Shown: positions 16,410 through 56,618 of the stretch, piece after piece
Numbering within the stretch: the stretch's first letter is position 1
Layout: the number at the start of each line of letters is the position of its first letter
Assembly (NCBI GenBank): GCA_052034405.1
Contig: JBPOIO010000023.1
Span: 15,340-79,339 of the forward strand
Direction: 5' to 3'
Source of the DNA: Candidatus Magasanikiibacteriota bacterium
GTDB lineage: Bacteria; Patescibacteriota; Patescibacteriia; Magasanikbacterales; UBA922
Length of the DNA: 64,000 nucleotides
The notes under the pieces: generated by a model
Told to the model about the DNA's origin: nothing
Databases searched by the model: none
The model's input: only the letters and a program-made list of their open reading frames with translations
Made by a program: the position numbers and the translations under genes

Positions 16410-17129
16410 ATGCAAAATAAAACACTCGTCATCATTCCAGGTTGGGGAGGAAGCCACGAAACATGGGCAGATTTTATGAACCTCATGAAGCCCTATTTCA
16501 AAGACGTCGTTTGTATTGATCTCCCTGGATTTGGTGGAGTTGATACTCCCAAAACTGTCTGGGGAGTAGAACAGTACGCTGAATATGTAAGGCGAAAAAT
16601 TGAAAAGTTACCAGAGGGACCAAAAGTTATCATGGGACATTCTTTTGGGGGGCAAGTATCAGCCTACCTCGTCGCCAATAACCCTCAAGTTGCCCAAAAA
16701 TATATTCTTGTAGCCGGAGCTGTTTTTCGTCCATCTCGTCCTATTCGCCGCGCCTTCTTTTTTATTATCGCAAAATTTGGTAAAATACTCTTCAAGATAC
16801 CCGTGATTGAAAATGTTGCTATTTGGGCCAAGAAAATACTCTACAAAACAGCAGACTCGCCAGACTATGCAGCCACAAGCGGCATCAAACGCGACATCTT
16901 CAAAAAGATTATTCGCCAAGACCTCAGCGAGCAGCTTCCAAAAATCACCATAGCAACCCTAATTGTCTGGGGAACACTCGATAGTTATCTTCCTGTCAAA
17001 GACGCATACAGAGCACAAAAATTGATAGCGCATTCCAAACTTGAAATTATTCCTGGTGGTACACACGGATTGCACCTTCACCAAAAACAAAAACTCCTTG
17101 AACTCATTACTAAATTTGTCTATGACTAA
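16410..17129 (+). CDS. Alpha/beta hydrolase fold protein
   Basis: GHSFGG nucleophile elbow. C-terminal HG...H. Confidence 0.7.
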   Translation: MQNKTLVIIPGWGGSHETWADFMNLMKPYFKDVVCIDLPGFGGVDTPKTVWGVEQYAEYVRRKIEKLPEGPKVIMGHSFGGQVSAYLVANNPQVAQKYILVAGAVFRPSRPIRRAFFFIIAKFGKILFKIPVIENVAIWAKKILYKTADSPDYAATSGIKRDIFKKIIRQDLSEQLPKITIATLIVWGTLDSYLPVKDAYRAQKLIAHSKLEIIPGGTHGLHLHQKQKLLELITKFVYD

Positions 17130-18693
17130 TAGTGTCGTAGTCTCTGGTTTTCTTATTATCTGTGCCTGGATTACTACAGCTCTTTTTGACTATCTCTCCT
17201 ACGCTTATTTTTGGCAGCTCAAAGAGTATCGACTTGATCGTTTCAAAGACTTTCTCAAAAGTAACCAAGGTGAAGAAATATGGAAGGACCCGCGTTTTTT
17301 GTGGCGGGGAATTGGAGCACTCGCACTTCTTATCTCACCCATAGCCTATATCGCAATTATCGTTTTAAGCTTGGATATTCTTTTTCTTTTCTTTTCAAAA
17401 AGAAAATTTCGTCGCCCAGTGTTCACTAAAAAAAGTATATTGATCCTTCTTTTTTCACTCCTTGCAGAAGTTTTTCTCTTTCAACTTTTTCCACTCAATC
17501 TTGCCTTGGTACTTTTCCTTCGATTTTTTATTATTTCTCTGTTGGTATTTTTATTTTATATTCCATCACGTCTTGCAAAATTATTTTTCATTTGGCGTGC
17601 TAGTACAAAGCTTGCCTCATATAAAAACCTTGTCACCATTGGCATTACCGGAAGTTATGGCAAAAGTTCAGTCAAAGAATTTTCTGCACATTTTCTTTCT
17701 GCAGACTTCAAAGTTATAAAAACTCCAAACAATATCAATAGTGAAATTGGTATTGCCAAATTTATTTTGAAAACAGATTTTACTGGAATTGATTTTTTTG
17801 TCTGTGAAATGGGAGCTTACCGAATAGGAGAGATCAAAACGATCTGTGATATGGTCAAACCAAAAGTGGGAATACTCACAACTATTGCCGAGCAACATCT
17901 TGCACTCTTTGGAAGTATCCAAAATATCCAATCTGCCAAGTACGAACTTCTTCGTGCAATTCCAAAGGATGGTTTAGTTATTACCAACGCAGATAATCCA
18001 CTGTGTACAGAATTCCTAAAGGATTTAAACTGCAAAAATATTGAAACCTGTGGAGTCGAAGAACGAAATCATCCAACATTTTTAATTGTACGCAACGAAG
18101 CAACTATCAAAGGCATTGAATTTGAAGGGATTTATCATGGACAAAGAGGGGATATGAATATTCCGGTTCTTGGTGCTCACCAAGCCTACAATGCAGCTCT
18201 CTCAGTCATGCTTGCTGTTAATATGGAAGTTGATCCACAACATATTGTTGAAGCCGGCAAAACAATTCCTCAAAACCTTCAAGGAACACTCAAAAAATAT
18301 AGCTATGGAAAAGCTACTATCATTGACGATAGTTACAATTCCAATCCAGCTGGTTTTCGTGCTGCTATCGAAGTACTCTCCATGTTTTCTTCCAAGAAAA
18401 AACGTATAGTCATTACACGTGGTATGCTCGAACTTGGGGATCAAAGTGATGAAATGCATGAAAAAATTGGCGAAGAAATTTCTTATTCCTGTGATGAACT
18501 TGTACTTATTACTCCAGATTTTGTGGATTCTATCAAAAAAGGAATTCGTGAAAAATATCACACCACGGTTCAATGTATTTTTACTCCAGAAAAACTTCTT
18601 GAATATATCAAAACTCTTAAAACAGAAGATTGTGTTGTTTTACTTGAAAATCGTATTCCAACACGAGTCAAAGAAGAACTGCACAAATCCTAA
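17122..18693 (+). CDS. Mur ligase family protein (MurF-like) with an N-terminal ~190-aa polytopic membrane domain
   Basis: Internal ATG at 17122 after the hydrolase stop. N-terminal hydrophobic helices. Then GITGSYGKSSVKEF P-loop and Mur ligase middle/C domains (DDSYNSNP). Confidence 0.7.
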   Translation: MTNSVVVSGFLIICAWITTALFDYLSYAYFWQLKEYRLDRFKDFLKSNQGEEIWKDPRFLWRGIGALALLISPIAYIAIIVLSLDILFLFFSKRKFRRPVFTKKSILILLFSLLAEVFLFQLFPLNLALVLFLRFFIISLLVFLFYIPSRLAKLFFIWRASTKLASYKNLVTIGITGSYGKSSVKEFSAHFLSADFKVIKTPNNINSEIGIAKFILKTDFTGIDFFVCEMGAYRIGEIKTICDMVKPKVGILTTIAEQHLALFGSIQNIQSAKYELLRAIPKDGLVITNADNPLCTEFLKDLNCKNIETCGVEERNHPTFLIVRNEATIKGIEFEGIYHGQRGDMNIPVLGAHQAYNAALSVMLAVNMEVDPQHIVEAGKTIPQNLQGTLKKYSYGKATIIDDSYNSNPAGFRAAIEVLSMFSSKKKRIVITRGMLELGDQSDEMHEKIGEEISYSCDELVLITPDFVDSIKKGIREKYHTTVQCIFTPEKLLEYIKTLKTEDCVVLLENRIPTRVKEELHKS

Positions 18694-18696
18694 ATT

Positions 18697-19944
18697 ATGA
18701 ATTTTTTCAAAACTCCAGTTTTTACGGGATTTATGCCAAATCTCCTCGCAAAAGAAGTGCTTCTCGCTCTCTCTTTTATGTTTCCTTGGAATTGGTCAAA
18801 ACTGCAATCGGGGAAAGCGCTCTCTTTACTCGAAAAACAATTCGAAACATTTTTTGGAATAAACTCTGTTATTGCTTTTGATAGTGGCCGTAGTAGCCTC
18901 CAAATTGCCCTAGAAAGCCTTGAAATGTCACAAAACGATGAAGTACTCCTCCAAGCCTATACCTGCTCTGTTGTGTCAAATGCCGTCATTTGGTCTGGGG
19001 CTCGTCCAGTATATGTTGATATAAACAAAAATTTCAACATGGACCCAAGTGATTTGGAGAAAAAAATCACTCCTCGTTCCAAAGTTCTCATTATTCAACA
19101 CACATTTGGAATTCCCGCAGATCTTGAAGCACTTGTAGCCATTGCCCAAAAACATAATCTTACTATCATTGAAGATTGTGCGCATGTCATTGGTGGTATG
19201 TATAAAAATAAAATGCTCGGAACTTGGGGAGATATTGCTATGCTCAGCTTTGGAACAGACAAATCTATTTCCTGTGGTCGAGGTGGAGCTTTGCTTACAA
19301 ATAATACAAATCTAGCAGAAAAATTTCGCAAAAGACAAAAAACACTTCCTCATCTTTCAAAAAAATATATTCTGCAACAACTCTACACTTTTATTCTTTT
19401 TTTTCTTTGCAAAGCACTGTATACTATTGGTATTGGAAAATTTGTACTCGCACTTTCAAAAAAATTGCATCTGAGTAGTCGAATTATTGAACAAAATGAA
19501 AAAAAAGGAAAGCAAAGTCCAAAATTTCCTGCACAATTGGCAAATACATTGGCAGAAATTGCACTTCATCAAATGAAACATTTGAATGAATTTAATGAGC
19601 ACAGAATTGCTCTTGCAGAAAACTATAAAAAAAATATACAAAATTCTCAAATAGAAACCCCAGAAAAAATTCAAAATATTCCATTTTTACGTTTTCCAAT
19701 TTTAGTCAAAAATCCAGCAAAACTTCACAAAATGGCGCAAAAAGAGGGGATACTCCTTGGAGATTGGTATACCACAGTTATTGCACCTTCTGATGTAGAT
19801 GAAAGTAAAATGGGCTATACAAAAGGATCTTGTCCCAATGCAGAAAAACTTGCGCAAAGATCAATAAATCTCCCAACACATATTCATATTTCTCAAAAAA
19901 ATCAAGAAAAAATCATCAAGATTGTAAATTCTTATGCCGAATAA
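18697..19944 (+). CDS. DegT/DnrJ/EryC1/StrS-family PLP-dependent sugar aminotransferase
   Basis: Fold-type I motifs (LLQAYTCSVVSNAVIWSGARPVYVD, AMLSFGTDKSISCGRGGALLTN). Confidence 0.8.
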   Translation: MNFFKTPVFTGFMPNLLAKEVLLALSFMFPWNWSKLQSGKALSLLEKQFETFFGINSVIAFDSGRSSLQIALESLEMSQNDEVLLQAYTCSVVSNAVIWSGARPVYVDINKNFNMDPSDLEKKITPRSKVLIIQHTFGIPADLEALVAIAQKHNLTIIEDCAHVIGGMYKNKMLGTWGDIAMLSFGTDKSISCGRGGALLTNNTNLAEKFRKRQKTLPHLSKKYILQQLYTFILFFLCKALYTIGIGKFVLALSKKLHLSSRIIEQNEKKGKQSPKFPAQLANTLAEIALHQMKHLNEFNEHRIALAENYKKNIQNSQIETPEKIQNIPFLRFPILVKNPAKLHKMAQKEGILLGDWYTTVIAPSDVDESKMGYTKGSCPNAEKLAQRSINLPTHIHISQKNQEKIIKIVNSYAE

Positions 19945-20965
19945 GCTGCGTATTCAAGAGATAGAAAGCCCACAAATTTGGGAATCTTTTGTTCGATCCC
20001 AAAAATCTACAGTTTTTGTACAAGCTCCTCAATATGGAGAATTTTATAAATCTCTTGGTGAAAATTTTTTTATTCTCGGAATTTTAAAAGAAGGGGAGCT
20101 TGTTGGAGGTTCTTTGGTAGTGACAACACATGCACGTCGTGGCAATTTCCTCTATCTTCCCTATGGTCCATTTTTACCAGAACAAAATAGGCAAGAAGCC
20201 CTGCAACTTTTCACAGAACACCTTGAAACATACGCAAAAAAACACAAATATTCTTTTATTCGTGTGAGTCCTTTTCTCGAGGAAAATGCTGAAAACATTG
20301 CTCTTTTCAAACATTGCAAATACCACCCTGCTCCCATGCATGCTCTTGCAGAAACAACATGGATTTTGAATATACAAGCATCCGAAGAAACACTTCTCAA
20401 AAACATGAACAAAAATCATCGTAATTTGATTCGTCGTTGTGAACGTGAAGGAGTTGTGATTACACAATCAACAAACCCAAAAGATCTTGATGGTCTTGAC
20501 GAAATGCTTGAGGTAACAGCACAAAGACATAACTTTACAAAATTTTCAAAAAAATATATTACTTCAGAATTCAAGAGTTTTCTCCCAGATAATACGGTTT
20601 TATTTGAAGCCAGACTTCCAGATGGTCGGCTCGATGGAGCTGCTATTATCATGTTTTATGGTACTATGGCCTGTTATCGTCATAGTGCTTCACTTGGCCT
20701 AGATAACAAGCTTCCAACCTCATATCTTCTTCAATGGAAAGTAATTCAAGAAGCTCAAAAAAGAGGCATGCACTGGTATAATTTTTGGGGTATTGCTCCC
20801 CTTGATGCCCACAAAAAACATCCATTTTTTGGTATTACCCATTTCAAAAAAGGTTTTGGTGGAGAAATACGAAATATTTTGCACTGTCAGGATTTTGTTG
20901 TCAGCAAAAAATATTATCTCAATTGGATTATAGAACAATTTCGAAAACGAAAACGTGGTTTCTAA
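19934..20965 (+). CDS. FemAB/FemX-family aminoacyl-tRNA-dependent peptidoglycan peptidyltransferase
   Basis: GNAT-duplication architecture. Motifs HRNLIRRCEREGV and ...AAIIMFYGTMACYRHSAS. Confidence 0.65.
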   Translation: MPNKLRIQEIESPQIWESFVRSQKSTVFVQAPQYGEFYKSLGENFFILGILKEGELVGGSLVVTTHARRGNFLYLPYGPFLPEQNRQEALQLFTEHLETYAKKHKYSFIRVSPFLEENAENIALFKHCKYHPAPMHALAETTWILNIQASEETLLKNMNKNHRNLIRRCEREGVVITQSTNPKDLDGLDEMLEVTAQRHNFTKFSKKYITSEFKSFLPDNTVLFEARLPDGRLDGAAIIMFYGTMACYRHSASLGLDNKLPTSYLLQWKVIQEAQKRGMHWYNFWGIAPLDAHKKHPFFGITHFKKGFGGEIRNILHCQDFVVSKKYYLNWIIEQFRKRKRGF

Positions 20966-20968
20966 AAT

Positions 20969-21925
20969 ATGAGAGATTTTTTTCATAAAAAAAATAAACA
21001 GACAGGACATATTCCACCGGGATATCGTTCTTTTGAACATAGCACGACAATTCCTGAAAAAAATAAACAAAGATCATGGAAATGGTATAGCAAAATTATC
21101 GTTATTTGTATTACTTTTTTGGGAACTTTTGGACTTCTTTTTTTACACCCTTTTTTTCAGATTCATACAATTCAAATTCGAGGTCTGCATCGTATTGAAG
21201 AAGGGGATATACGTGATACCGTAAATGGTATTCTCTCCTATAAACGTTTTTTGATTTTCCCACAAAATAATTTTTTTGTTCTTGATATTGATGATCTCCA
21301 TACTATTTTGGAACAAAAATTTGGTCTTCAAAAATTAACTATTACAAAACGCTTTCCCCATAGTGTACATATTGTTTTAGAAGAAAAACTTTCTTCTATC
21401 ATGTATGATAATGGCGAACAATATGCCATGATTGATGCGAAAGGAAAGGTTTCTGAAATTTTACGCATTATTGATGATAGTGAATGGCGTGTTATCAAAA
21501 AACGTGTTACAAGTACGAGTGAAGGTGGCACAGAAGTTTCTACTGAACAAATTGTTTCACGATTTCACACTCCAAATTATAAAAAAATTATCAGCGAAGT
21601 AGGGGACTATCCCCTCGTGTATGATAACAGAAGTAAAAAGGTAGGAAAAGGTGAACAAGTTTTGAATGAAAATACAGTCCAAGAAATCATTGAGTGGTAT
21701 GAAGCCCTCAAAAAAACAGATATTCCTTTTACTTATTTTTACTTGGAACAAGAGGTTGGTGATGTAACAATCAAAACCACAGAAGGTTGGAATATCAAAG
21801 CCAAACTCGATAAAAACATTCCAGAACAATTTCAAACCTTAGAATATATTTTGAAACAAAAAGTAAAACGTCCAGACATCCAATATATTGATGTTCGTTT
21901 TTCGGGTCGTGCTTTTTGGTTGTAA
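20969..21925 (+). CDS. ftsQ: Cell division protein FtsQ/DivIB-like (TM helix plus POTRA domain)
   Basis: N-terminal TM. POTRA-like IHTIQIRGLHRIEEGDIRDTV. Beta-domain PHSVHIVLEEK. Follows murF and fem genes. Confidence 0.55.
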   Translation: MRDFFHKKNKQTGHIPPGYRSFEHSTTIPEKNKQRSWKWYSKIIVICITFLGTFGLLFLHPFFQIHTIQIRGLHRIEEGDIRDTVNGILSYKRFLIFPQNNFFVLDIDDLHTILEQKFGLQKLTITKRFPHSVHIVLEEKLSSIMYDNGEQYAMIDAKGKVSEILRIIDDSEWRVIKKRVTSTSEGGTEVSTEQIVSRFHTPNYKKIISEVGDYPLVYDNRSKKVGKGEQVLNENTVQEIIEWYEALKKTDIPFTYFYLEQEVGDVTIKTTEGWNIKAKLDKNIPEQFQTLEYILKQKVKRPDIQYIDVRFSGRAFWL

Positions 21926-32417: not shown

Positions 32418-33353
32418 CTAAATCAATTGAATTTCTTCTTCTATAGATATTCCAAATTTATTGTACACTTTTTCTTTTATTTCATCAATGAGAGTCAAAA
32501 CATCACTCGAACTTGCACTCCCAAGATTTATAATAAAATTTCCATGCGTATCGCTTACTTTTGCATTTCCTACCTGAGCCCCTTTCATACCCGCTTTATC
32601 AATAAGCCATCCTGCAGAAATAATTCCTTTTTGTTTGAATTCTTCAGGTACTTCAAAATTGAGTTTTGCTTGTCCAATTTCAAAATTTTTAAAAATACAA
32701 CCGGTAGATGCAAATCCCTGTGGTTGAGTCTTGCTGCGATATTGCAAAAACTCCAATGCTTTTTTCATGCCGTCTTTGTTTTCGGATTTTTCAAGTTTTA
32801 AATGCACTCGTAGTACCACAGCACCACTGTCTTTGAACATACTATGACGATAGTGAAAATCACACTGCGCATTGCTCAGCATTACCAGCTCACCATCCAT
32901 ATAGGCTTCGATCTTTTCTACATTATTACTCATGTCACTTCCCATAGCTCCTGCGTTTCCTCGAACCGCGCCACCAATAGTACCAGGCACTCCCACGCCC
33001 CATTCAAATCCAATAAAACCTTCTTTCATGGAGAGATTGGCAATGGCAACGGTACTGCATCCAGCATCTGCAATGATCCCAGTATCTGTCACTTCTGTTT
33101 TTTTTGTGTTGATATTGATCACAACACCTGTATATTCACTATCAGAAGCAAGCATATTACTACCACCACCGAGGATAAATCGTTCAATCCCCTCTTCGTC
33201 AAGAAATTTGAGGAGATCTACCAGCTTGTCAGTTTCGTCAACAACAACAAAAAGTTGGACTGGTCCACCAATTTTGAAGGTTGTATGCTTACTCATGGGC
33301 TCATTGAGCTTCACTTTTCCGTAGTTTTTGAGCTTTTTATAAAGTTCCATCAT
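32418..33353 (-). CDS. murB: UDP-N-acetylenolpyruvoylglucosamine reductase
   Basis: FAD-binding domain (TTFKIGGPVQLFVVV, ILGGGSNML) and C-terminal MurB domain. Confidence 0.85.
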   Translation of the reverse strand: MMELYKKLKNYGKVKLNEPMSKHTTFKIGGPVQLFVVVDETDKLVDLLKFLDEEGIERFILGGGSNMLASDSEYTGVVININTKKTEVTDTGIIADAGCSTVAIANLSMKEGFIGFEWGVGVPGTIGGAVRGNAGAMGSDMSNNVEKIEAYMDGELVMLSNAQCDFHYRHSMFKDSGAVVLRVHLKLEKSENKDGMKKALEFLQYRSKTQPQGFASTGCIFKNFEIGQAKLNFEVPEEFKQKGIISAGWLIDKAGMKGAQVGNAKVSDTHGNFIINLGSASSSDVLTLIDEIKEKVYNKFGISIEEEIQLI

Positions 33354-33354
33354 A

Positions 33355-33383
33355 TTGCCATAATCAAATTTTTGTCCTATACT
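33355..33383 (+). promoter_or_regulatory. Candidate promoter TTGCCA-17-TATACT for ATP-grasp gene
   Basis: TTGCCA 33355-33360, 17-nt spacer, TATACT 33378-33383. Predicted TSS ~33390, i.e. about 94-nt leader. Confidence 0.45.
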
Positions 33384-33385
33384 AA

Positions 33386-33483
33386 GGTCTACGCATTTAA
33401 CCTTTTCGCTTTCCTCGCCCTGGGCTCGGGGATGCCCTCTGCGGAGGTCGTAACCCGCTCAAAGGTCAAATGCTTACGCCCTT
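33386..33483 (+). promoter_or_regulatory. GC-rich structured 5' leader (candidate riboswitch or cis-regulatory RNA) of ATP-grasp gene
   Basis: About 65% GC in an AT-rich genome. Long-range helix GCATTTAACC (33393-33402) with GGTCAAATGC (33464-33473), 9/10 bp. Several internal GC hairpins (GGGC...GCCC, GCGG...CCGC). Lies between promoter and ATG at 33484. Confidence 0.35.
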
Positions 33484-34689
33484 ATGCATATGCCAAAAAT
33501 ACTTTTTTACATTACTCGAGATATCGAAAGAGCACTTGGCCTTTCTGTAGATAATGAAGGCTATTTTATTATCTCAAATTCTACCCCCTTTAGCAAGCAA
33601 ATCGCTCTTTTACATCCAAATGTTTTACTTGTTGAAGAAAGCCAACTTCTTGATACCCATGAACTTTTGCAAAAGCAGAGTGTTCAAGATTTTATTACGC
33701 AAAATTCAAATAACATGAAGCCAAATATTTTGGTTTTCAAAAATACTTCTATTATTGAAAAAATTTGTACAGAAAACAATTGGAATCTCCTCAATCCAAG
33801 TGCAAAACTCTCTCAAATGATCGAAGAAAAAATTACACAAGTTGAATGGCTCGGGAGTCTCACAAAATATCTTCCTCCACACAAAATTCAAATTGCCCAT
33901 GATGTTGTGTATGACGGCATGCCATTTATTTTGCAGTTCAATCGTGCACACACGGGACTAGGAACGATGATGATTTCTTCGACTGAACAACTTGCCGAAA
34001 TACAAAATAAATTTCCGGATCGTCCTGTTCGCATCACGCAGTTTATTGATGGTGCCATGCTGACGAGTAACAATGTTGTCTGTCCTGATAAAGTTTTGGT
34101 TGGCAATATCAGCTACCAGATTACCGGTACGCCACCATTTACAGATAATCCATTTACAACTATTGGCAATGATTGGGCCCTTCCACATGTTTTGTTGAAT
34201 GATGAGTTGAAAGCGCAATACCATACGATTGCCACAGAGATTGGAAACAAACTTCGTGAAAGCGGATGGAAAGGACTCTTTGGAATTGACGTTATACTCG
34301 ATACAGCAGAAAATAAATTGTATTTGATCGAAATCAATGCAAGGCAACCAGCAAGTACCACTTACGAAAGTATTTTGCAAGAAAAAAATACAACTTTTGC
34401 TGCACACCTCTCAGCGCTCACAGATACTCCAAGTAACGAATTAACTCAAATCACAACAGGTGCGCAGATTATTGTTCGCAATGGTGAACTCATGCAAGAC
34501 AAAACCCAAGATACGATTATCCAAAACTTAAAAAACCTCAATTTTGATCTGAACATCATCCCCTACACCAATACAGACCCAGGTTCAGATTGGATTCGCA
34601 TTCAGACAACCCAGTCTTTATTTACAGAACATAATAAACTCAACGAACTTGGAGAAAAAATAAAAAAAACTCTTGAAGAGTCTCTATAA
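33484..34689 (+). CDS. ATP-grasp fold ligase (possibly a divergent D-Ala-D-Ala ligase or other peptidoglycan amino-acid ligase)
   Basis: C-terminal ATP-grasp signature GLFGIDVILDTAENKLYLIEINARQPAS, analogous to Ddl RVDFF...YLNEINTMPGFT. Adjacent to murB. N-terminal Ddl motif GGxSxEHEVS absent. Confidence 0.7.
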   Translation: MHMPKILFYITRDIERALGLSVDNEGYFIISNSTPFSKQIALLHPNVLLVEESQLLDTHELLQKQSVQDFITQNSNNMKPNILVFKNTSIIEKICTENNWNLLNPSAKLSQMIEEKITQVEWLGSLTKYLPPHKIQIAHDVVYDGMPFILQFNRAHTGLGTMMISSTEQLAEIQNKFPDRPVRITQFIDGAMLTSNNVVCPDKVLVGNISYQITGTPPFTDNPFTTIGNDWALPHVLLNDELKAQYHTIATEIGNKLRESGWKGLFGIDVILDTAENKLYLIEINARQPASTTYESILQEKNTTFAAHLSALTDTPSNELTQITTGAQIIVRNGELMQDKTQDTIIQNLKNLNFDLNIIPYTNTDPGSDWIRIQTTQSLFTEHNKLNELGEKIKKTLEESL

Positions 34690-34702
34690 AATGAAGGGTA
34701 AC

Positions 34703-34828
34703 GGACGGGCTGTGGTAAGTTGAGATGCTCGACCAAATCAACTATTCCATCTTCAGTTGGTATGCGTGTTGGAGTGACAACAAGCTTACCTACTGATAAA
34801 GGAAACCATTCGGCTACCCAGCCCGTCC
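34703..34828 (+). ncRNA. Candidate structured GC-rich RNA element (unknown class)
   Basis: Closing helix GGACGGGCTG-(T)-GGTA (34703-34717) with TACC-CAGCCCGTCC (34815-34828), 14 bp. Internal hairpins CAACT/AGTTG and TGTTG/CAACA. No ORF. GC far above background. Ends just before a TATATAAT box. Confidence 0.3.
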
Positions 34829-34865
34829 GCCCATATATAATCACAACACAGCATAATTGTCAACT

Positions 34866-35660
34866 ATGAACAACAAAACTCTCTCACAACCCGCACTCGA
34901 TATTATCAAAAATTATTCTCAGCTTGTCTTTGGCGACAAAAAAATAAACTGCCCCTACTTCAACAACCGCCGCAGCAAAGTTCGCGCAGGGTTGCGGGTA
35001 ATGATTGGAAAAGGCAACCCAGAAGAAATTATTGACGAAGCAAATCTTTTTGCACTCCGAGAAAAAATTGATCTCAAAAATTTATCAAGCGAGGCAATAA
35101 AACAATTTCTCGTTGATCACAATCTTGGACTTGATTGTTCTGCCTTTGCCTATTATATTTTGGCAGCAGAATACGCAAGCAAGACAAAAAATAAACTTTC
35201 TTCCAAGATATTTTATCCAAATATTGGACTTTTGCGAAAACTTCTCACCAAACTTCGCCCTGTAGAAAATATTGGGGTCAAAACTTTGGCACAGGAAAAA
35301 AACTCACATCTTGTTTCGCTCTCTGACACTGCTCCGGGAGACTTTGTAAGTATTTTAAATTCAGGAAAAGAACACAACCTCAATCATATCCTCGTCATTT
35401 ACAAAGTTGAATACGAAGAAAACCAGCCAAAAACATTGTACTATGTACATTCTTTTCAATGGTCCACAGATGGAAAATATAATCATGGAATAAAAACAGG
35501 GCGCATTGAAATTACTGATACGAAAAAAACACTGCTCGAGCAAAAATGGATTGAATCCGAAAAAACAGCTGAACAAAATGAAACTTACCTCCGAGCAAGT
35601 GATGCCGAAGTACTCGAACTCAAACGACTGAATGTATTATTAACAAAAAATCCTGCTTGA
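34866..35660 (+). CDS. Hypothetical protein (265 aa)
   Basis: ORF track 34857 (TTG) with first ATG at 34866. Followed by a terminator. Confidence 0.5.
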   Translation: MNNKTLSQPALDIIKNYSQLVFGDKKINCPYFNNRRSKVRAGLRVMIGKGNPEEIIDEANLFALREKIDLKNLSSEAIKQFLVDHNLGLDCSAFAYYILAAEYASKTKNKLSSKIFYPNIGLLRKLLTKLRPVENIGVKTLAQEKNSHLVSLSDTAPGDFVSILNSGKEHNLNHILVIYKVEYEENQPKTLYYVHSFQWSTDGKYNHGIKTGRIEITDTKKTLLEQKWIESEKTAEQNETYLRASDAEVLELKRLNVLLTKNPA

Positions 35661-35680
35661 GTGCAGGTTTTTTTATTTTT
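35645..35680 (+). terminator. Intrinsic terminator
   Basis: CCTGC (35652-35656) pairs with GCAGG (35663-35667). Then TTTTTTT (35668-35674). Overlaps the stop codon. Confidence 0.55.
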
Positions 35681-35777
35681 CTTCTAAATACCTCCGAGGA
35701 GATTTTCAAAAGGAAGGTCCGCGCGAAGTGCACGGAAGGATGGCGGCCCAATATCCGCCAGAATAGGGTTGTTTCGC

Positions 35778-36197
35778 CTAGAGCTTGCGCAGCTCGGCGA
35801 GGACGACCCACATATTCGAGACGTAGAGGTAGTAGCGCTGGAACAGATCGCTCGTGGCGGTCGGGATTCGTTCAAAATCCCCAGTCGCCAGATCTGCGGG
35901 CTCATTGCTGTAGCCCATTTCACGGAGGCAGCGCATCACCTCGGCAATGACCGACTGAATCCGCTGGTACTTCACGCCCATCGGATCAGCGTTCTTCACC
36001 CAGTTGAGCAGCAGCCCACGGATGGCCGAGAGGTGTTCCGCCTCCGAGTCATCACGATCCGCGCCAAAAACCTCTCGCAGTCGAAGTCCGTACATGACGG
36101 AAAAACTCCTGGCCCCGTCTGGGACAGGGCGAACTTGGTGTGGCTTTTGGCCACCATGGCCGCCAGCCTTTGTCGTTCCAGGACAATGGGGCACCAA
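35778..36197 (-). CDS. Hypothetical protein on a high-GC island (probable horizontally acquired gene)
   Basis: Region 35700-36230 is ~60% GC. Minus-frame codon third positions are strongly GC-biased (over 70%), whereas the antisense plus ORF 35769..36326 is not. Possible internal start at MYGLRL... Confidence 0.45.
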   Translation of the reverse strand: MVPHCPGTTKAGGHGGQKPHQVRPVPDGARSFSVMYGLRLREVFGADRDDSEAEHLSAIRGLLLNWVKNADPMGVKYQRIQSVIAEVMRCLREMGYSNEPADLATGDFERIPTATSDLFQRYYLYVSNMWVVLAELRKL

Positions 36198-36334
36198 TTA
36201 AACGAACGAGCACCAAATAAGGAGTTTATTATATTTTTAAAATTTATATGTGGACGAATGGAACGACCCACAAATCTACCACAATTCCTCTCCCTTGTCA
36301 ATCCCCACATTCTCTGCTATACTTGAAGAAAAAT

Positions 36335-37465
36335 ATGCCTATTTCAGCAGAATCTATCTCTCTTCTTCGAGAAGCCATTTTATTTGGTCTTGTTTCTTGT
36401 TTTTCAGCATTTCTATGGGCACCAGCACTCACCAAGATCCTCTACAAATACAAAATCGTCCGCAACAACCCCTACGACCCAACCCTCGCTATGGAAGGAC
36501 GCAAAGACAAATCTGGCATCCCTATTATGGGAGGCCTTTTGATTATCATCACCGTTGCAGTCATTACTATGCTCTTCAACTGGGAGCGCAAATTTACTTG
36601 GGTACCAATCTCGGTCATGCTCCTCGCGGCACTGCTCGGTGGCGTTGACGACGTACTCAATATCTATGGTGAAAAACGCCGCAATCGTGACCTCAAACAT
36701 ACCCTGCGTCTCATCCGCATTCACAAAAATATTTTTACCCGCATCTGGCTGACTCTCACACTGCCATGGGCCCTGTTCAAACGCACTTCCCTTTGGCTGG
36801 GTTCACATCCTGGCAAAGGTATGCAGGTTCATGAACGACTACTCCTCCAATTTGTCGCAGGCGCTATCACAGCATGGTGGGTCTACTTCAAGCTTGGTGA
36901 ACACTGGAGAGAAATTCATATTCCATTTGATGGCTTTCTCAATATTGGCTGGTGGATTATTCCGCTCATCATTTTCTTTGTCATGTTTACCGCCAATGCA
37001 GTGAACATCGCAGATGGTATGGATGGTCTTGCAGGAGGATCTCTGATCACCACTTTTTCTGCTCTCACAATTCTTTCTTGGATTGCAGGGTACCACGAGA
37101 TTACACTGCTCAATGCTACGGTTGTTGGGGCACTTATTACCTATACCTATTTCAATATCAAACCAGCGCGTTTTCAAATGGGCGACGTTGGCTCACTTGG
37201 CATGGGCGCACTGCTTGCGATCAATGCTATTGTGATAAATCACATGCTCCTCTTGCCGCTTCTTGGTTTTATTTTTTATGTAGAAATTTTGAGCGTGATA
37301 GTCCAAATCTTTGGCCGCACTTTTCTCGGGAAGCGTATTTTCAAAATGGCGCCACTCCACCACCACTTTGAACTCATGGGTTGGGGCGAAGAAAAAACTG
37401 TCATGCGTTTTTGGATTATTCATGCAGCGTTTGTACTGCTTGGTATTTGGGTTGCCTTGTACTAA
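36335..37465 (+). CDS. mraY: Phospho-N-acetylmuramoyl-pentapeptide transferase
   Basis: NAVNIADGMDGLAGG, MGDVGSLGMGALLA, KMAPLHHHFE. ATG at 36335 (ORF track start 36248 lies in the GC island). Confidence 0.9.
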   Translation: MPISAESISLLREAILFGLVSCFSAFLWAPALTKILYKYKIVRNNPYDPTLAMEGRKDKSGIPIMGGLLIIITVAVITMLFNWERKFTWVPISVMLLAALLGGVDDVLNIYGEKRRNRDLKHTLRLIRIHKNIFTRIWLTLTLPWALFKRTSLWLGSHPGKGMQVHERLLLQFVAGAITAWWVYFKLGEHWREIHIPFDGFLNIGWWIIPLIIFFVMFTANAVNIADGMDGLAGGSLITTFSALTILSWIAGYHEITLLNATVVGALITYTYFNIKPARFQMGDVGSLGMGALLAINAIVINHMLLLPLLGFIFYVEILSVIVQIFGRTFLGKRIFKMAPLHHHFELMGWGEEKTVMRFWIIHAAFVLLGIWVALY

Positions 37466-37476
37466 ACAAAAATAGT

Positions 37477-38178
37477 ATGAAAGAATATCTGAAATGGGAT
37501 GAACAAATAATTACAGACTTCTCAGACGAAAACATCAATAACCTTTATGACAAAGGTTATGTTTTTACTCGAAAAGAAAAAGGCCTGATGCATCAAACCC
37601 GCAGTGTCCGAATAAATCTCTCCAAATTTGACCTCAGTAGCGAAAATCGCCGCATTTTGCGAAAAACCGAAAATATTCAAATGGGCATCATCCCACTTCC
37701 CTTTCCAGATTATCATTGGAGTATTGGTAAACTTGCCAAAGATTTTTATGATACAAAATTTGGTGACGGGACATTTAGTGCAAACAAAGTCAAAGAATTG
37801 TTGACTGACAGAAATAAAAGCAACTTTACTTCGCTTTTTGTTTATTTTTCTGTAGCAATTCCAAAAGACCCAACAGCACCTATTGCAGTTGATCCTGAAA
37901 ATATTTTTGGATATTGCATTGCCATTGAAACAAACAAGATTCTCCATTATTCTTATCCTTTTTATGATCTTGAAACCGCTCCAAAAGACATGGGAATGGG
38001 TATGATGACCCGTGCCATTCAATCTGCCAAAGCAAGTGACAAAAAATATATCTACCTTGGTAGTGCACAGCGCCCAAACGATACCTACAAATTTCAATTT
38101 GAAGGTATTGAGTGGTTTGATGGTGAAAAGTGGCAGACTGATTTTGAAGAGTTGAAAAGTATTTTACAAAAAATATGA
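37477..38178 (+). CDS. Aminoacyl-tRNA--protein transferase family protein (ATE1/Bpt-like, GNAT fold)
   Basis: C-terminal YIYLGSAQRPNDTYKFQFEGIEW resembles the ATE_C/Bpt motif YLGYWI...KM.YK..F.P.E. N-terminal region is ATE_N-like. Start at internal ATG 37477. Confidence 0.5.
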   Translation: MKEYLKWDEQIITDFSDENINNLYDKGYVFTRKEKGLMHQTRSVRINLSKFDLSSENRRILRKTENIQMGIIPLPFPDYHWSIGKLAKDFYDTKFGDGTFSANKVKELLTDRNKSNFTSLFVYFSVAIPKDPTAPIAVDPENIFGYCIAIETNKILHYSYPFYDLETAPKDMGMGMMTRAIQSAKASDKKYIYLGSAQRPNDTYKFQFEGIEWFDGEKWQTDFEELKSILQKI

Positions 38179-38659: not shown

Positions 38660-39079
38660 ATGAATTCAGAAAACGAAAGATACACCTCCATTTCTCAAAA
38701 TATTCTTGCAGAGGTAAAAGAAAAAAAACAACACAATACAGAATACATCCTTAAATTTGGGGGAAGACGTCTTACTCTTTTGATCATAGAAAGTCAAAAA
38801 GAGATTATGGACTATCTTGAAAATACCAGCGATACTCCAGAAATAGGCTCTACTACAGAACTCTACAAGGCAGCAAAAATTTTACTCCAAAGAGTCGTCA
38901 ACACAAGACGAGAAAGCCTCAAATATGTTATGAGAACCAAAAGTTCTTCAATCCGTGAGTGGGCCCAAAGTCAAGGAAATGAAATTTTTGACTGGGATAG
39001 TATGGAAATAGACGAGCGTCGAGGTGCTGACTCTCTTTTTTACAAAACATTTAGCCCTGAAAATAACGACACTGTATGA
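38660..39079 (+). CDS. Hypothetical protein, tandem paralog B
   Basis: 139 aa. Paralog of 38175..38618. Confidence 0.5.
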   Translation: MNSENERYTSISQNILAEVKEKKQHNTEYILKFGGRRLTLLIIESQKEIMDYLENTSDTPEIGSTTELYKAAKILLQRVVNTRRESLKYVMRTKSSSIREWAQSQGNEIFDWDSMEIDERRGADSLFYKTFSPENNDTV

Positions 39080-40464
39080 AACACATTCACTTCATCGGCA
39101 TTTGCGGAGTCGCCATGAGCGCACTTGCCATTGCTTTCAGCAAAAAAGGCTATACCGTCACTGGAAGTGATGCGGGTTTTTATCCTCCGGTTTCCACCAA
39201 TCTTCTCGCACACAAAATTCCTTTTTATCCTGGCTGGCATGTAGACAAAATGACCAAAAACGGTGTCCCAGATCTTGTCATAGTTGGAAATGTTGCTAGT
39301 TCAAGCAACCCAGAATGGCTCTATGTTCAAGAACAAAAAATCCCCTACCTCTCATATCCAGAAGCAATCGCCGAATATTTTCTTGGAAAAAATTCTATTG
39401 TCTGCGCTGGAACCTATGGCAAAACTACCAGTTCAACTTTGCTTGCTTGGATCCTGCGCAATGCCAAGTTTGACCCAAGCTATATGTTTGGTGGCGTGCC
39501 TGTCAACGAATTTGATTCTGCGTCAATATCTGATGCCCGTGAATATAGCGTGCTTGAAGGAGACGAATACAAAACTTCAGGCTGGGACAATCGTCCAAAA
39601 TTTGCACTCTATGCGCCAACACATTTGCTTCTCACCAGTGTGAGCTGGGATCATGCGGATGTGTATCCAACAGAGCAAAGTTATTTTGATGCATTCAAAA
39701 CACTGGTTGCGACTATCCCAAAAACAGGCCTGCTTGTTGCATGTACCGAAGGAAAAAACATAGATCTTGTTTTGCCTTCTTGCAAATCACAAATTGTTTT
39801 TTATGGCAAAGCCAAACATGCAGACTACATGTATCGCGACGTACAACAAACCGAAAAAGGCCTCTACTTTGATATCCTCAACAAAAAAGAAGTCTACCAT
39901 ATAAAAACTTCAATTCTTGGTGAATACAATGTTGAAAATATGGTTGGATGTTTTGCCATGGCCCGTGAAATTGGCATTGATGCAAAAACAATTCTCGAGA
40001 GTTTTGCATCTTTTCGTGGTATCAAACGCCGTCTTGAAAAACGCCTCACTGGACCAATCACGGTGATCGACGATATTGCACATTCCCCTGCCAAAGCGGC
40101 GTCACTTCTCGAAACTCTTCGCAAAACATACAAAGGAAAAATCATTGCTGTTTTTGAACCAAATACTGGGAACCGTCAACAAGAAGCAATTCCACAATAC
40201 GATCAGGCTTTCAAATACGCCGATACCGTCGTTATTCCACGCCTCACCAAGCTCAAAATCGATCCAAATGATACAGAAAGCCCCCTTGAAGGACAGGATT
40301 TACGAGATGTGATTCATACAACACATAAAGATGTTGAATATATTGAACAAGACGAAACCCTCGTCAAATATCTTATCCAAAATAGCAAAAAAGGCGATGT
40401 TATTGCCTTTCTTGGTTCACATGGATTTCGTGGTATGATTGAAGAAACTATAAAACAACTTTAA
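39076..40464 (+). CDS. MurC/Mpl-family UDP-N-acetylmuramate--amino acid/peptide ligase
   Basis: HFIGICGVAMSALA N-terminus. GTYGKTTSSTLLAWIL P-loop. EGDEYKTSGWDNRPKF...WDHADVY resembles the Mpl/MurC EADEYD...FDHADIF block. Confidence 0.8.
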   Translation: MKHIHFIGICGVAMSALAIAFSKKGYTVTGSDAGFYPPVSTNLLAHKIPFYPGWHVDKMTKNGVPDLVIVGNVASSSNPEWLYVQEQKIPYLSYPEAIAEYFLGKNSIVCAGTYGKTTSSTLLAWILRNAKFDPSYMFGGVPVNEFDSASISDAREYSVLEGDEYKTSGWDNRPKFALYAPTHLLLTSVSWDHADVYPTEQSYFDAFKTLVATIPKTGLLVACTEGKNIDLVLPSCKSQIVFYGKAKHADYMYRDVQQTEKGLYFDILNKKEVYHIKTSILGEYNVENMVGCFAMAREIGIDAKTILESFASFRGIKRRLEKRLTGPITVIDDIAHSPAKAASLLETLRKTYKGKIIAVFEPNTGNRQQEAIPQYDQAFKYADTVVIPRLTKLKIDPNDTESPLEGQDLRDVIHTTHKDVEYIEQDETLVKYLIQNSKKGDVIAFLGSHGFRGMIEETIKQL

Positions 40465-40468
40465 CTCT

Positions 40469-41107
40469 ATGCTTAATATTCCACCAGGTCTTGCCCTTGA
40501 TATTGATGATACACTTTGTCACACACTTATACATCTTTTAGATCAGCTTCAAAAAAACTTTGGCAGTCCAGAAAATCTCACAGCAGCAGAACTTGTAAAC
40601 AAATATTCACATACTTCAAAAATCCCTTACTGGAATGAACCAGAACATCACACATGGAAACTCGCACTCCTTGAAACAGATGAACTCTACGAAAATTTAG
40701 ATATTATTGAAAATGCAAATTATATCATACAAAAAATTGAAGCAGTAATACCAATATCTTGTTATATTACTGCACGACCAGAAGGTACAACAGCAGTAAG
40801 TAAACGCTGGCTCAAAAAATATAACTTTCCTGAACGAGAAGTCATTAGTAAACCAAACTCAGTAGCATACGAAGACGGCAACAAATGGAAAGCCCAACTC
40901 CTCACACAATACCATCCTCAATTGCTCGGGATTGTAGACGATAATCCTGGAATAATTTCAGCGCTTCCCGAAAATTACAAAGGGACTGTATTTTTGTACA
41001 GTCACCTTGAATACACAGGTCCAACACCAATCAACGTCATCCCCTGCAAAGATTGGGATACTGTCTACAACAAAATTATTTCCCTTCGTCCACAATCTCA
41101 GCCATAA
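40469..41107 (+). CDS. HAD-superfamily hydrolase (5'(3')-nucleotidase-like)
   Basis: LALDIDDTL (DxDxT motif I). About 212 aa. Confidence 0.6.
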   Translation: MLNIPPGLALDIDDTLCHTLIHLLDQLQKNFGSPENLTAAELVNKYSHTSKIPYWNEPEHHTWKLALLETDELYENLDIIENANYIIQKIEAVIPISCYITARPEGTTAVSKRWLKKYNFPEREVISKPNSVAYEDGNKWKAQLLTQYHPQLLGIVDDNPGIISALPENYKGTVFLYSHLEYTGPTPINVIPCKDWDTVYNKIISLRPQSQP

Positions 41108-41243
41108 CCTCATCTCCATCAATTTTTTCGATAATAAGAGAAATTCCACACATTCCACATTCAACGATCTGACCAACCGTAAGTTCTGCGTAAGAACTCA
41201 AATCAACTGGATTTTTGCATTCAGGACAAATAAGATGCATACT
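41086..41243 (-). CDS. Small zinc-ribbon protein, LysW-like architecture (52 aa, MHLICPECKNPVDLSSYAELTVGQIVECGMCGISLIIEKIDGDEVMAEIVDEGK)
   Basis: Read directly (under 60 aa). CPEC...CGMCG four-Cys ribbon and acidic C-terminus as in LysW/ArgW carrier proteins. Overlaps the 3' end of the HAD gene by about 20 nt. Confidence 0.4.
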
Positions 41244-41298: not shown

Positions 41299-42180
41299 AT
41301 GAAAACACCACAAAAACCCTACGGAGAATTGGCAAAAAAAATGGGCCTCACTGAGCTCTGGTTCAAACGTGAAGACCTGCACCCATATGGCTCCCACAAA
41401 GGTCGATCGATTCCACAGATGATCAAAGAATACGCCAAACTTGGAAGCACGCAATTTGTGATTTCTTCTTCTGGAAACGCAGCGCTCGCGGCTATTATTG
41501 CTGTCCAAAAACACAATCAAAATAACCCAACACATGTGAATCTTACTGTGTACGTTGGACAACACATTGATGCAGAAAAATTGACCCGTCTCAAAAAAGA
41601 AATTACAGATACTTCTATTACAATCGAACAAGTTGAAAATCCAAAACAAATGGCTTTTCAAAAAGATAAAAGTGCAGAAGCCAAGAATCTTCGCCAATCC
41701 ACTGATGACCTCGCCCTTCGCGGATATGCCGAACTCGCAGACGACCTCTCCAAAATTCCAAATCTCGAGGCAGTTTTTATCCCTACTTCTTCTGGTACCA
41801 CTGCCCAAGCACTTGGCGAGGCATTCCAAAAAATGAATCTTCCTATTCAAATACACATTGTGCAAACTACAACAACCCACCCAATCGCAGAAGCATTCGA
41901 TACAACATTTACTCACAGCGACGAAACATCTCTCGCTGGCGCGATCGTTGACAAGATTGCTCACAGAAAAGACAAAGTTGTGGAAGCAATAAAAAACACC
42001 CATGGTTCTGGGTGGGTTATAACAAATACTGAAATTGAAAACGCAATGAATTTGGTCAAAGAAAATACTGATTTTACACTTTCATCAAACAGCGCACTGT
42101 CTCTCGCAGGCCTTCTCAAAGCGCAAAAAAATGACTGGAAATGGACCGGTCCGGTCGCCTGCCTAATTACTGGTAGATAA
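41299..42180 (+). CDS. PLP-dependent enzyme, fold type II (Trp-synthase-beta/Thr-synthase/Cys-synthase superfamily)
   Basis: HPYGSHKGRS resembles the PALP lysine motif (PTGSFKDRG). Gly-rich IPTSSGTTAQALG loop. Confidence 0.65.
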   Translation: MKTPQKPYGELAKKMGLTELWFKREDLHPYGSHKGRSIPQMIKEYAKLGSTQFVISSSGNAALAAIIAVQKHNQNNPTHVNLTVYVGQHIDAEKLTRLKKEITDTSITIEQVENPKQMAFQKDKSAEAKNLRQSTDDLALRGYAELADDLSKIPNLEAVFIPTSSGTTAQALGEAFQKMNLPIQIHIVQTTTTHPIAEAFDTTFTHSDETSLAGAIVDKIAHRKDKVVEAIKNTHGSGWVITNTEIENAMNLVKENTDFTLSSNSALSLAGLLKAQKNDWKWTGPVACLITGR

Positions 42181-42600
42181 TTTATTTCGCACCAACTCAA
42201 TAATTTCATTTTGCTCCTCGTAGGGCGTTGTCACTTCTTCGTCAAACAAGTCAAACCATTTTCCTCTGTGCACCTTGTCTGACGGGATTAAATGCATTTC
42301 CACCTGCACAGTCTCAAACAAAAAATAATGAATAACCTTATATTCAGAACGCAACATACTCATGCGTTCTTTTTTCCCAAGATATTCAACTAATTTCAAT
42401 TCAGCGATACCCACCTCTTCTTCAATTTCTCTTCGGGCAGCAGCTTCGAAGTCCTCGCCTTCTTCTACATGGCCCTTTGGCAAAAACCAAGCGCCATCCA
42501 TATATTTTTCTTGCTGCTCCATCGCAATCATATAGCGATCGCCTTCTTTACGAAGCACCACCCCGCCAGCAGAGACTCGTGTAGGAATTTCTTCTGTCAT
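42163..42600 (-). CDS. NUDIX hydrolase
   Basis: Nudix box GHVEEGEDFEAAARREIEEEVGI. Confidence 0.8.
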   Translation of the reverse strand: MTEEIPTRVSAGGVVLRKEGDRYMIAMEQQEKYMDGAWFLPKGHVEEGEDFEAAARREIEEEVGIAELKLVEYLGKKERMSMLRSEYKVIHYFLFETVQVEMHLIPSDKVHRGKWFDLFDEEVTTPYEEQNEIIELVRNKLSTSN

Positions 42601-55610: not shown

Positions 55611-56618
55611 TTACTTCGTAGCCAAAATACTGCGTTTATATGTTTCCAAATTTTCAAGCGCAATACCAGTCCCCTTTGCCACACAAAGCAGTGGTTCATC
55701 CGCAACATAACAGGCAACACCAGTCGCTTCCGAAATAAGCGCGTCGAGGTTGCGAAGCATGCTCGATCCCCCTGCCATCATAATTCCTTTGTCCATCACA
55801 TCTGCAGAGAGTTCTGGTGGCGTCTCATGTAATACTTCTTTGACCGCTTCAATAAGCCCCTGCAAATCATGCTGCAAAGCTTCGGTGGTATCATTACTCG
55901 TCACCGTAATCGTACGAGGAAGTCCTGTCACATTATCACGCCCTTTTACTTCCATGGTAAGTGGTGTATCCATGTACATTGCTGAACCAACTTTAATTTT
56001 TACCTCTTCCGATGATCGATCACCAATCGCCATACCATACTTACGACGAATAAATTCAGCGATAGAAGCGTCAAATCGTGTTCCTCCGATACGCACTGAA
56101 CCACAAGATACAATTCCACCGAGCGAAATCACAGCAATTTCTGCAGTTCCTCCACCAATATCCACAATCATATGACCCGATGGACTCCCAATTGGGATAT
56201 CTGCTCCAATAGCAGATACAATCGGTTCTTTGATAATATACGCAGCTCGCGCTCCTGCTGCCATAGCAGCATCAATTACCGCACGTCTTTCGGTTGAAGT
56301 AATACCAGCTGGTACCGCAATCATTACCTCTGGACGAAAAATACGCACCCCACCAAGGGCTTTGTTGATAAAATAACGCAGCATGGCTTCTGTTGTACGA
56401 TAATTGGCAATCACACCATCTTTGAGTGGACGCTCAGCCACAATAGTGTCTGGAGTACGCCCAATCATTTCTTTTGCTTCAATTCCAACTGCCAATACTT
56501 TTTTTTCTAATTTTGAAACTGCTACAACAGATGGTTCGTTAATTACAATACCACGCTTTGGTACATACACCAGCACATTTGTTGTCCCAAGATCAATTGC
56601 AACTTTTTTTACCCACAT
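55611..56618 (-). CDS. Second MreB-like actin-family protein
   Basis: AIDLGTTNVLVYV. IVDIGGGTAEIAVISLG. MAGGSSMLRNLDALISEATG. Paralog of 6177..7223. Confidence 0.85.
   Translation of the reverse strand: MWVKKVAIDLGTTNVLVYVPKRGIVINEPSVVAVSKLEKKVLAVGIEAKEMIGRTPDTIVAERPLKDGVIANYRTTEAMLRYFINKALGGVRIFRPEVMIAVPAGITSTERRAVIDAAMAAGARAAYIIKEPIVSAIGADIPIGSPSGHMIVDIGGGTAEIAVISLGGIVSCGSVRIGGTRFDASIAEFIRRKYGMAIGDRSSEEVKIKVGSAMYMDTPLTMEVKGRDNVTGLPRTITVTSNDTTEALQHDLQGLIEAVKEVLHETPPELSADVMDKGIMMAGGSSMLRNLDALISEATGVACYVADEPLLCVAKGTGIALENLETYKRSILATK

Follow-up and report, generated by a model that had tools for sequence, protein, structure and literature searches.

The ATP-grasp gene next to murB encodes a putative carboxylate-amine ligase that forms, together with an NlpC/P60 (C40) cysteine amidase, an obligate and often covalent two-enzyme module. 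Judged from its residues, the ligase is a catalytically plausible carboxylate-amine ligase and not a divergent Ddl, and we give somewhat better than even chances to the proposal that the module acts on peptidoglycan stem-peptide-type substrates. The features discussed below are collected in Table 1; "the window" refers throughout to the whole 64-kb stretch of DNA that was analyzed. The reading frame originally predicted for the ligase gene, including its strand and its length, was confirmed by ORF listing.

Table 1. Positions of the ligase-amidase module, its putative signals, the inserted elements, and neighboring genes in the window.
Feature	Position	Strand	Description
murB, divergent neighbor	32418..33353	-	NCBIfam murB 276.5 bits vs cut-off 259
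Promoter-like site TTGCCA-17-TATACT	33355..33383	+	Consensus scan 10/12; ligase-amidase operon
GC-rich insertion of ~80 nt, 5' leader	33402..33482	.	Terminal inverted repeats; 55% GC
Putative ATP-grasp carboxylate-amine ligase gene	33484..34689	+	401 aa; CPR-specific family
Structured insertion between ligase and amidase	34696..34835	.	140 nt; 14-bp GC-rich closing stem
NlpC/P60 (C40) cysteine amidase, ligase partner	34866..35660	+	264 aa; predicted cytoplasmic
Bidirectional intrinsic terminator	35652..35667	.	Terminator scan; end of two-gene operon
mraY	36335..37465	+	Pfam Glycos_transf_4; TIGR00445 191.7 bits; next conserved gene downstream
ATE_C/arginyltransferase-like (Fem-like GNAT) gene	37477..38178	+	Conserved cluster
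murC/mpl-like Mur ligase	39076..40464	+	TIGR01082 murC 270 bits, mpl 251 bits, both below cut-offs
Stand-alone NUDIX hydrolase	42163..42600	-	Pfam NUDIX; homologous to the NUDIX fused to or inserted at the ATP-grasp elsewhere

The ligase is an ATP-grasp enzyme outside the Ddl family

The original prediction offered two identities for the ligase, a divergent Ddl or a novel peptidoglycan amino-acid ligase, and drew a parallel between its C-terminal motif and that of Ddl. The motif, LYLIEINARQPAS, is present and starts at residue 279, but it is a generic Mg-binding element, E283-I-N285-A-R287, i.e. E-x-N followed by Arg, a feature of the biotin-carboxylase/PurK/L-amino-acid-ligase class, and not the T-x-P-G of Ddl. 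Five residues (K116, D269, E283, N285, and R287) do not vary across 61 sequences of the ligase family, and the protein joins an ATP-grasp fold to the conserved Mg and ATP ligands of the superfamily, namely the Asp, the E-x-N, and a Lys that opens the central domain; its three-domain fold and E-x-N-x-R are the features of the L-amino-acid ligase class. It is because of this E-x-N-then-Arg site, in place of T-x-P-G, and of the invariance of the catalytic residues that we regard carboxylate-amine ligation as plausible and a Ddl identity as not. At the strand that in ATP-grasp enzymes usually carries the 'xxK' motif, the ligase reads ILQFNRAH, with Q151 and N153 invariant; since the Lys there is apparently replaced, nucleotide binding may be atypical.

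Profile searches place the protein in the superfamily at a distance from every named family. The Pfam match to ATP-grasp_3 is marginal (24.2 bits vs a cut-off of 23.2), and the top NCBIfam match, PRK06524 ('biotin carboxylase'-like), covers residues 60-290 with 56.5 bits, short of its cut-off of 684; the NCBIfam models for 'Ddl_archaea', PurT, LdmS, GshB, and PylC score 12-24 bits, far under their cut-offs. Neither the single protein nor a 61-sequence profile found a significant match among PDB chains by sequence. In fold class the protein groups with PurK, PurT, PurD, biotin carboxylase, and the L-amino-acid/peptide ligases and not with Ddl, and the nearest structural neighbor is not of the Ddl type. 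A confident match to PurK had been named beforehand as evidence against a role in the cell wall; the resemblance exists at the level of the fold (10-17% identity, TM ~0.65-0.70), but no PurK model matches the ligase at E ≤ 0.1. Since the similarity to PurK is confined to the fold, is equaled by the TM scores that peptide ligases give, and comes with no sequence-model match, we assign no purine function to the ligase.

Two other elements of the original prediction stood up well. The N-terminal signature of Ddl is indeed absent, with no match to a Ddl N- or C-domain at E ≤ 0.1 (Pfam Dala_Dala_lig_N/_C, NCBIfam), and the window indeed lacks a canonical ddl, as none of 58 large ORFs scanned matches Dala_Dala_lig in Pfam. 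A phmmer search of the window ORFs of at least 80 aa with the E. coli DdlB sequence returned nothing at E ≤ 10, and no Ddl-like ORF was found in any of 89 related loci. The divergent-Ddl reading itself does not survive: the homology to Ddl is at the superfamily level only, and neither the fold class nor the E-x-N-x-R is that of Ddl.

A C40 amidase is the constant partner of the ligase

The amidase gene lies directly 3' of the ligase gene in 86 of the 89 loci, the remaining 3 being cut by a contig end. The association is covalent in 32 of 268 collected family members (including 25 of the top 150 representatives); the proteins of 612-779 aa in the ligase family are ATP-grasp domains fused to a homologue of the amidase of the window. 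These 32 fused proteins thus unite a synthetase-type domain and a papain-like amidase in one polypeptide, while in the window the two are separate genes. The ORF call starts the amidase at TTG 34857; its homologues favor the ATG given in Table 1.

The amidase has the papain-like core and the catalytic residues of the C40 family, its orthologues exceed the Pfam NLPC_P60 cut-off, and Cys91, His174, and His195 are kept without exception across 58 sequences, so that the Cys-His-His triad is intact. A predicted model of the protein (pLDDT 91.8) was matched to MepS (10.4), a gamma-D-Glu-L-diamino-acid endopeptidase (9.7), CwlO (9.3), YkfC (8.8), and LytE (8.8). The top of the match list consists exclusively of peptidoglycan-peptide hydrolases, with the Gsp amidase at 6.5, and the relatives closest in structure cleave the gamma-D-Glu-diamino-acid bond and others of the stem-peptide type. 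A signal peptide or transmembrane segment was found in neither the ligase nor the amidase; the module is therefore predicted to act in the cytoplasm. Both genes are under purifying selection, with dN/dS values of 0.22 (ligase) and 0.15 (amidase) against the 89%-identical relative L007, and the neighboring genes are constrained more tightly in the same comparison (murB 0.06, mraY 0.03, hpf 0.05).

A third domain recurs in the family. Members other than the one studied here (P0103, P0072, and others) carry a C-terminal NUDIX domain, and a NUDIX lies between ligase and amidase in loci L028, L032, and L070. ATP-grasp genes that at first appeared 'interrupted' (e.g. in L081 and L086) were an artefact of keeping one domain per match.

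The module lies among genes for peptidoglycan precursors

The neighborhood is rich in genes for the wall and for cell shape: the Pfam matches of the 58 large ORFs include two mreB, mreC, PBP2, a MurF-like ligase, FemAB, and an FtsQ-like protein, in addition to murB, mraY, a murC/mpl-like ligase, and an S11 DD-carboxypeptidase. Base composition over the window is ~38% GC, which together with the homologues assigns the DNA to a Magasanikbacteria-like member of the Patescibacteria/CPR. The adjacency to murB that had been noted is correct, but the two genes are not co-directional; murB is on the minus strand across a spacer of 130 nt, so that it and the ligase gene are divergent. This arrangement recurs: of the 89 loci, 82 have a divergent murB and 58 have mraY downstream, and the Fem-like ATE_C and murC-like genes occur in 51 and 45, respectively. 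The dominant order is secF-secD-secA-hpf-murB on the minus strand and, on the plus strand, ligase, C40 amidase, in some cases a GT87-like membrane protein, then mraY, ATE_C/Fem-like, murC-like, and more genes.

Conserved position is to be read with care. Synteny across the clade extends over the entire region, secDF, secA, and hpf included, and the adjacency to murB and mraY could be inherited gene order and not functional linkage; because the unrelated secA and hpf are also syntenic, adjacency within the clade is weak evidence on its own. In the Paceibacter-type loci L014, L059, and L080, the pair instead diverges from mraZ-mraW, with which the dcw cluster begins, and this is a second, independent wall-related context; in loci L018 and L049 the pair sits among unrelated genes. 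Of the two identities first proposed for the ligase, that of a novel peptidoglycan amino-acid ligase is viable, and it gains support from the conserved amidase adjacency, the fusions, and the two wall contexts.

The flanking elements are insertions and not conserved regulators

The promoter-like sequence upstream of the ligase gene is conserved in L001, L007, and L009. A weak Rfam match to 'STnc370' turned out to be the hairpin of the downstream terminator with its U-tract. The original prediction saw GC-rich structured RNA elements on both sides of the ligase gene and took them as a sign of tight regulation. Structure was borne out on the downstream side, where the 140-nt element has a minimum free energy of -64 kcal/mol and a z of -5.9 vs shuffles; the upstream element is GC-rich, but its fold (z = -1.4) is no better than chance. 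Neither element matched Rfam, whether the window was searched at the gathering score or positions 33300-36400 at E ≤ 1.

The distribution of the elements among relatives bears on what they are. The upstream element occurs in L007 and L008, is missing at the exact site in L001 and L009, and is inverted within the same spacer in L010; in its absence at the exact site and its inversion, it behaves more like a miniature mobile element than like a leader RNA. L007 and L008 carry the 140-nt element in nearly identical form, and L001, L004, L005, L006, and L009 lack it. In these five loci the two genes of the module are fused, overlapping, or within ~30 nt of each other, and in L001 and L004 mraY follows shortly after them. 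A search of metagenome contigs with the closing-stem pattern of the 140-nt element gave 20 matches, all in unrelated DNA of 57-74% GC and attributable to chance, so that there is no multi-copy support for this element. Self-splicing or read-through across the 140-nt spacer was considered and rejected, the two ORFs being in different frames and most family members being two genes. Both flanking elements are thus lineage-specific insertions resembling small mobile elements, and are not conserved regulators: neither keeps its position across orthologous loci, and neither belongs to a known RNA family, as would be expected of a cis-regulatory RNA. Since they are lineage-specific and not conserved, the claim of tight regulation is unsupported.

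A further GC-rich block (positions 35692-36210, 57-61% GC) is a protein gene on the minus strand and not RNA. Its 105-aa ORF has a Shine-Dalgarno sequence and its own terminator, gave no family match, and is found among the relatives in L007-L009 only.

The ligase family is widespread in CPR bacteria and undescribed

A word-indexed search with the ligase gave 1604 matches, and 50%-identity representatives, searched exhaustively with a profile, yielded 1831 proteins at E ≤ 1e-3, 421 of them at E ≤ 1e-30; in a scan of one genome per species, 386 species-level genomes carried the family. The named carriers are Magasanikbacteria, Patescibacteria, Parcubacteria, or Paceibacter. This CPR synteny is also seen in many bulk-submitted metagenome-assembled genomes titled 'uncultured Gammaproteobacteria', a label that is probably wrong. 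The literature searched on ATP-grasp enzymes, CPR/Patescibacteria/Magasanikbacteria, peptidoglycan, and Ddl contained no description of the ligase family and no statement about ddl in the Patescibacteria, CPR, or Magasanikbacteria lineages. The kind of chemistry is a known one, but the family and its ligase-C40(-NUDIX) architecture are undescribed in the literature searched, and no curated family or solved structure claims them.

Proposed function and alternatives

The reading that we favor, by a modest degree of confidence, is that of a carboxylate-amine ligase and amidase module working on peptidoglycan stem-peptide-type substrates; the link to peptidoglycan is one that we infer. Substrates of this type appear most likely because the module is placed within the operon structure of peptidoglycan precursor synthesis, with murB on one side and the order module-mraY-Fem-like-murC on the other. 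By the chemistry of its superfamily, the ligase would convert a substrate carboxylate into an acyl-phosphate at the expense of ATP and couple it to an amine, giving a peptide or isopeptide bond. The amidase would act on substrates of the same class, hydrolyzing typically a gamma-glutamyl or D-aminoacyl bond, and in doing so might either supply or trim the substrate of the ligase or edit its product. Candidate substrates are free D- or L-amino acids or peptides, or UDP-MurNAc-peptides. Three versions of this general reading can be envisaged: the ligase may add a branch or side chain to UDP-MurNAc-peptide, as Aslfm does (PMC2922099); salvaged peptides may be re-ligated for the murC/mpl-like ligase; or the ligase may be a non-orthologous Ddl.

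This last version is also an alternative in its own right, in which the MurF-like ligase would receive D-Ala-D-Ala, or a different D-aminoacyl dipeptide, from the ATP-grasp enzyme, and the fused C40 domain would act as an LD- or DD-carboxypeptidase that frees D-Ala from scavenged stem peptides. We consider it unlikely, although several observations speak for it: no ddl was found in the window or in the 89 related loci (~1.1 Mb in all), while the window encodes users of D-Ala-D-Ala (the MurF-like ligase, PBP2, and the S11 DD-carboxypeptidase); folds of the L-amino-acid-ligase type make dipeptides; and the best structural match of the amidase, MepS, bears a PDB name that includes LD-carboxypeptidase activity. 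Set against these are the homology to Ddl at the superfamily level only, the fact that the window covers a fraction of the genome, so that a canonical ddl may lie elsewhere, and the consideration that a simple dipeptide ligase needs no fusion to a peptidase or NUDIX.

A comparably low probability attaches to a synthetase/amidase pair acting on a small molecule outside the wall, either like glutathionylspermidine synthetase/amidase (GspSA) or as a gamma-glutamyl tailing and trimming cycle. On this account the position of the pair in the cluster would be inherited synteny.

The stem-peptide proposal also has a bolder form, speculative and, in our estimate, rather improbable, in which the fused ATP-grasp/C40 (±NUDIX) module of Magasanikbacteria-type CPR is a machine that salvages and rebuilds stem peptides in place of the canonical enzymes. 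Here the C40 enzyme would trim scavenged, host-derived stem peptides or UDP-MurNAc-peptides, the NUDIX would open UDP-MurNAc-peptides, and the ATP-grasp enzyme would re-ligate the freed D-amino acid or peptide. It would thus serve as a non-orthologous Ddl or stem-peptide ligase that works off the nucleotide and feeds the MurC/Mpl-like and MurF-like ligases.

A RimK/LysX-like ligase for protein or peptide tails, with a LysW-like protein as its possible target and the C40 enzyme releasing the product, seems very unlikely to us. A 54-aa LysW-like zinc-ribbon protein with an invariant acidic C-terminus, ...VDEGK, is encoded 6.4 kb downstream of the ligase, and its conservation extends to 31 loci that share this syntenic block; gamma-glutamyl amides are, moreover, cleaved by C40 enzymes.

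A PurK- or biotin-carboxylase-like carboxylase in nucleotide, purine, or cofactor metabolism is scarcely credible, since no PurK or biotin-carboxylase sequence model comes near its cut-off, purE and other purine genes are absent from the window and the loci, the TM scores are no better than those for peptide ligases, and an obligate peptidase fusion fits such an enzyme poorly.

Significance

The CPR make up a large share of bacterial diversity and are mostly uncultured; many of their building blocks are not self-made, and how they construct a wall is largely unknown. The module is a concrete, testable candidate for a lineage-specific step in the synthesis, salvage, or editing of stem peptides. 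Should it stand in for Ddl or build an unusual branch, what is predicted of wall chemistry in the CPR and of their susceptibility to antibiotics (D-cycloserine, vancomycin) would change, and a new architecture (ATP-grasp + C40 ± NUDIX) would be added to the systems that form peptide bonds. Should it have nothing to do with the wall, it nonetheless represents an unannotated family of bifunctional synthetase/amidases.

Comparison with known systems

The L-amino-acid/peptide ligases share their fold class with the ligase at 10-15% identity, and the LdmS model scores 18.7 bits on it vs a cut-off of 475. We know of no such ligase that is fused to a C40 amidase or NUDIX or that lies in a murB/mraY operon. 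PurK, PurT, and PurD resemble the ligase in fold, but their sequence models fail (PurT, 23 bits vs a cut-off of 502), and the ligase differs from them in having no purine gene context and in being obligately paired with a peptidase. With Ddl it has in common the ATP-grasp superfamily, an E-x-N Mg site, and a plausible role beside Mur genes.

Further parallels are found among non-Ddl ATP-grasp enzymes of wall synthesis. In the archaeal pseudomurein pathway, an ATP-grasp enzyme (NF053643, 'Ddl_archaea') that is not a Ddl is encoded beside a MraY-like gene, its role in wall precursor synthesis being assigned from context only (PMC11915815). Its model is the second-best NCBIfam match of the ligase (E = 1.3e-5, 24 bits vs a cut-off of 500), but it belongs to another domain of life and lacks a C40 partner. 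For a 'peptidoglycan amino-acid ligase', the D-aspartate ligase Aslfm and other ATP-grasp enzymes that attach D-amino acids to peptidoglycan precursors offer the closest functional precedent; according to PMC2922099, which cites Bellais 2006, these are non-Ddl ligases that act on UDP-MurNAc-peptide. No NCBIfam model named for Aslfm matches the ligase at E ≤ 0.1. To our knowledge, Aslfm has not been described as a fusion to a peptidase.

The amidase, for its part, differs from MepS, YkfC, CwlO, and LytE in having its own N-terminal domain of ~85 aa (with invariant CPY[FY]NN and GKG) and an insert, in lacking a signal peptide and SH3b or LysM domains, and in being fused to the ligase in many lineages. 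For the combination of the two activities the nearest parallel is GspSA and trypanothione synthetase. Specific homology of both domains to GspS and the Gsp amidase was not found, the likeness being one of architecture: an ATP-dependent amide synthetase and a papain-like amidase (CHAP/NlpC-P60 superfamily) that act on the same type of bond are there joined in one polypeptide.

GC-rich elements around the ligase gene

The ligase and its partner NlpC/P60 amidase gene (C40), which are fused or overlapping in relatives, are split in the window by a 140-nt element with a predicted minimum free energy of -64 kcal/mol (z = -5.9). The copies of this element in the relative loci L007 and L008 are nearly identical to it, whereas the adjoining ligase gene shares just 88% nucleotide identity. 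The ~80-nt element in the spacer upstream of the ligase looks like a miniature mobile element; its copy in L010 lies in the opposite orientation to that in the window, and one compensatory change in its stem, CCTC..GAGG to CCTT..AAGG, sets the window apart from L007. A further block has 57-61% GC against 38% for the genome and carries a 105-aa ORF. This ORF has a Shine-Dalgarno sequence (AGGAG) and a terminator to itself, with no match in Pfam or NCBIfam, and besides the window the block is confined to the nearest relatives L007, L008 and L009. The ORF looks like a small, recently acquired gene.

Features of the window, with coordinates in relative loci where compared
Feature	Position	Strand	Detail
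MreB paralogues	6177-7223; 55611-56618	+; -	both full-length
MurF-like ligase	17041-18693	+	TIGR01143, 242 bits (cut-off 288.6)
Region with FemAB	19934-21925	+	FemAB, 19934-20965
~80-nt GC-rich element	33402-33482		murB/ATP-grasp spacer; terminal inverted repeats; L010 2132-2204
ATP-grasp ligase	33484-34689	+	L007 3299-4504
140-nt element	34696-34835		14-bp GC-rich closing stem; multi-branched fold
GC-rich block	35692-36210		ORF terminator 35736-35718
105-aa ORF	35778-36095	-
Arginyl-tRNA-protein-transferase-like gene (ATE_C)	37477-38178	+	GNAT/Fem-like
LysW-like zinc-ribbon protein	41076-41240	-	54 aa
Threonine-synthase-like PLP enzyme	41299-42180	+

Divergence of the ligase gene

In a single pairwise comparison of two close strains, the window and L007, the ligase gene has a dS of 0.36, roughly twice the ~0.17 of its neighbours, and a dN/dS of 0.22 against 0.03-0.06. 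These raised values could reflect recombination at the ligase gene or relaxed constraint.

The hpf-murB / ligase-C40-mraY synteny is of the type found in the candidate phyla radiation (CPR), and it recurs in dozens of MAGs deposited in GenBank as 'uncultured Gammaproteobacteria bacterium' (loci L010-L089), one of them a single contig of 1.34 Mb; this naming is probably a taxonomic error made in a bulk submission.

Other cell wall and carrier-like genes

The ATE_C gene lies directly 3' of mraY in 51 of the 89 loci, and its product is a possible tRNA-dependent transferase for which the wall precursor would be the substrate. FemAB is a separate gene of the window; with a DegT-type sugar aminotransferase it lies between the MurF-like ligase and an FtsQ-like gene, the spot where dcw clusters often have ddl. 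The MurF-like ligase has an N-terminal extension of ~190 aa that matches no domain. Two MreB paralogues, MreC and PBP2 are encoded in an organism whose genome is very small.

The zinc-ribbon protein and the PLP enzyme keep a divergent pairing that is constant across 31 loci, and the acidic C-terminus of the former, (I/V)VDEGK, is invariant. The protein may be a carrier, or a split zinc-ribbon subunit of the PLP enzyme; its likeness to the LysW/ArgW amino-group carrier model (NCBIfam NF041070) is weak, scoring 25 bits where the cut-off is 75.
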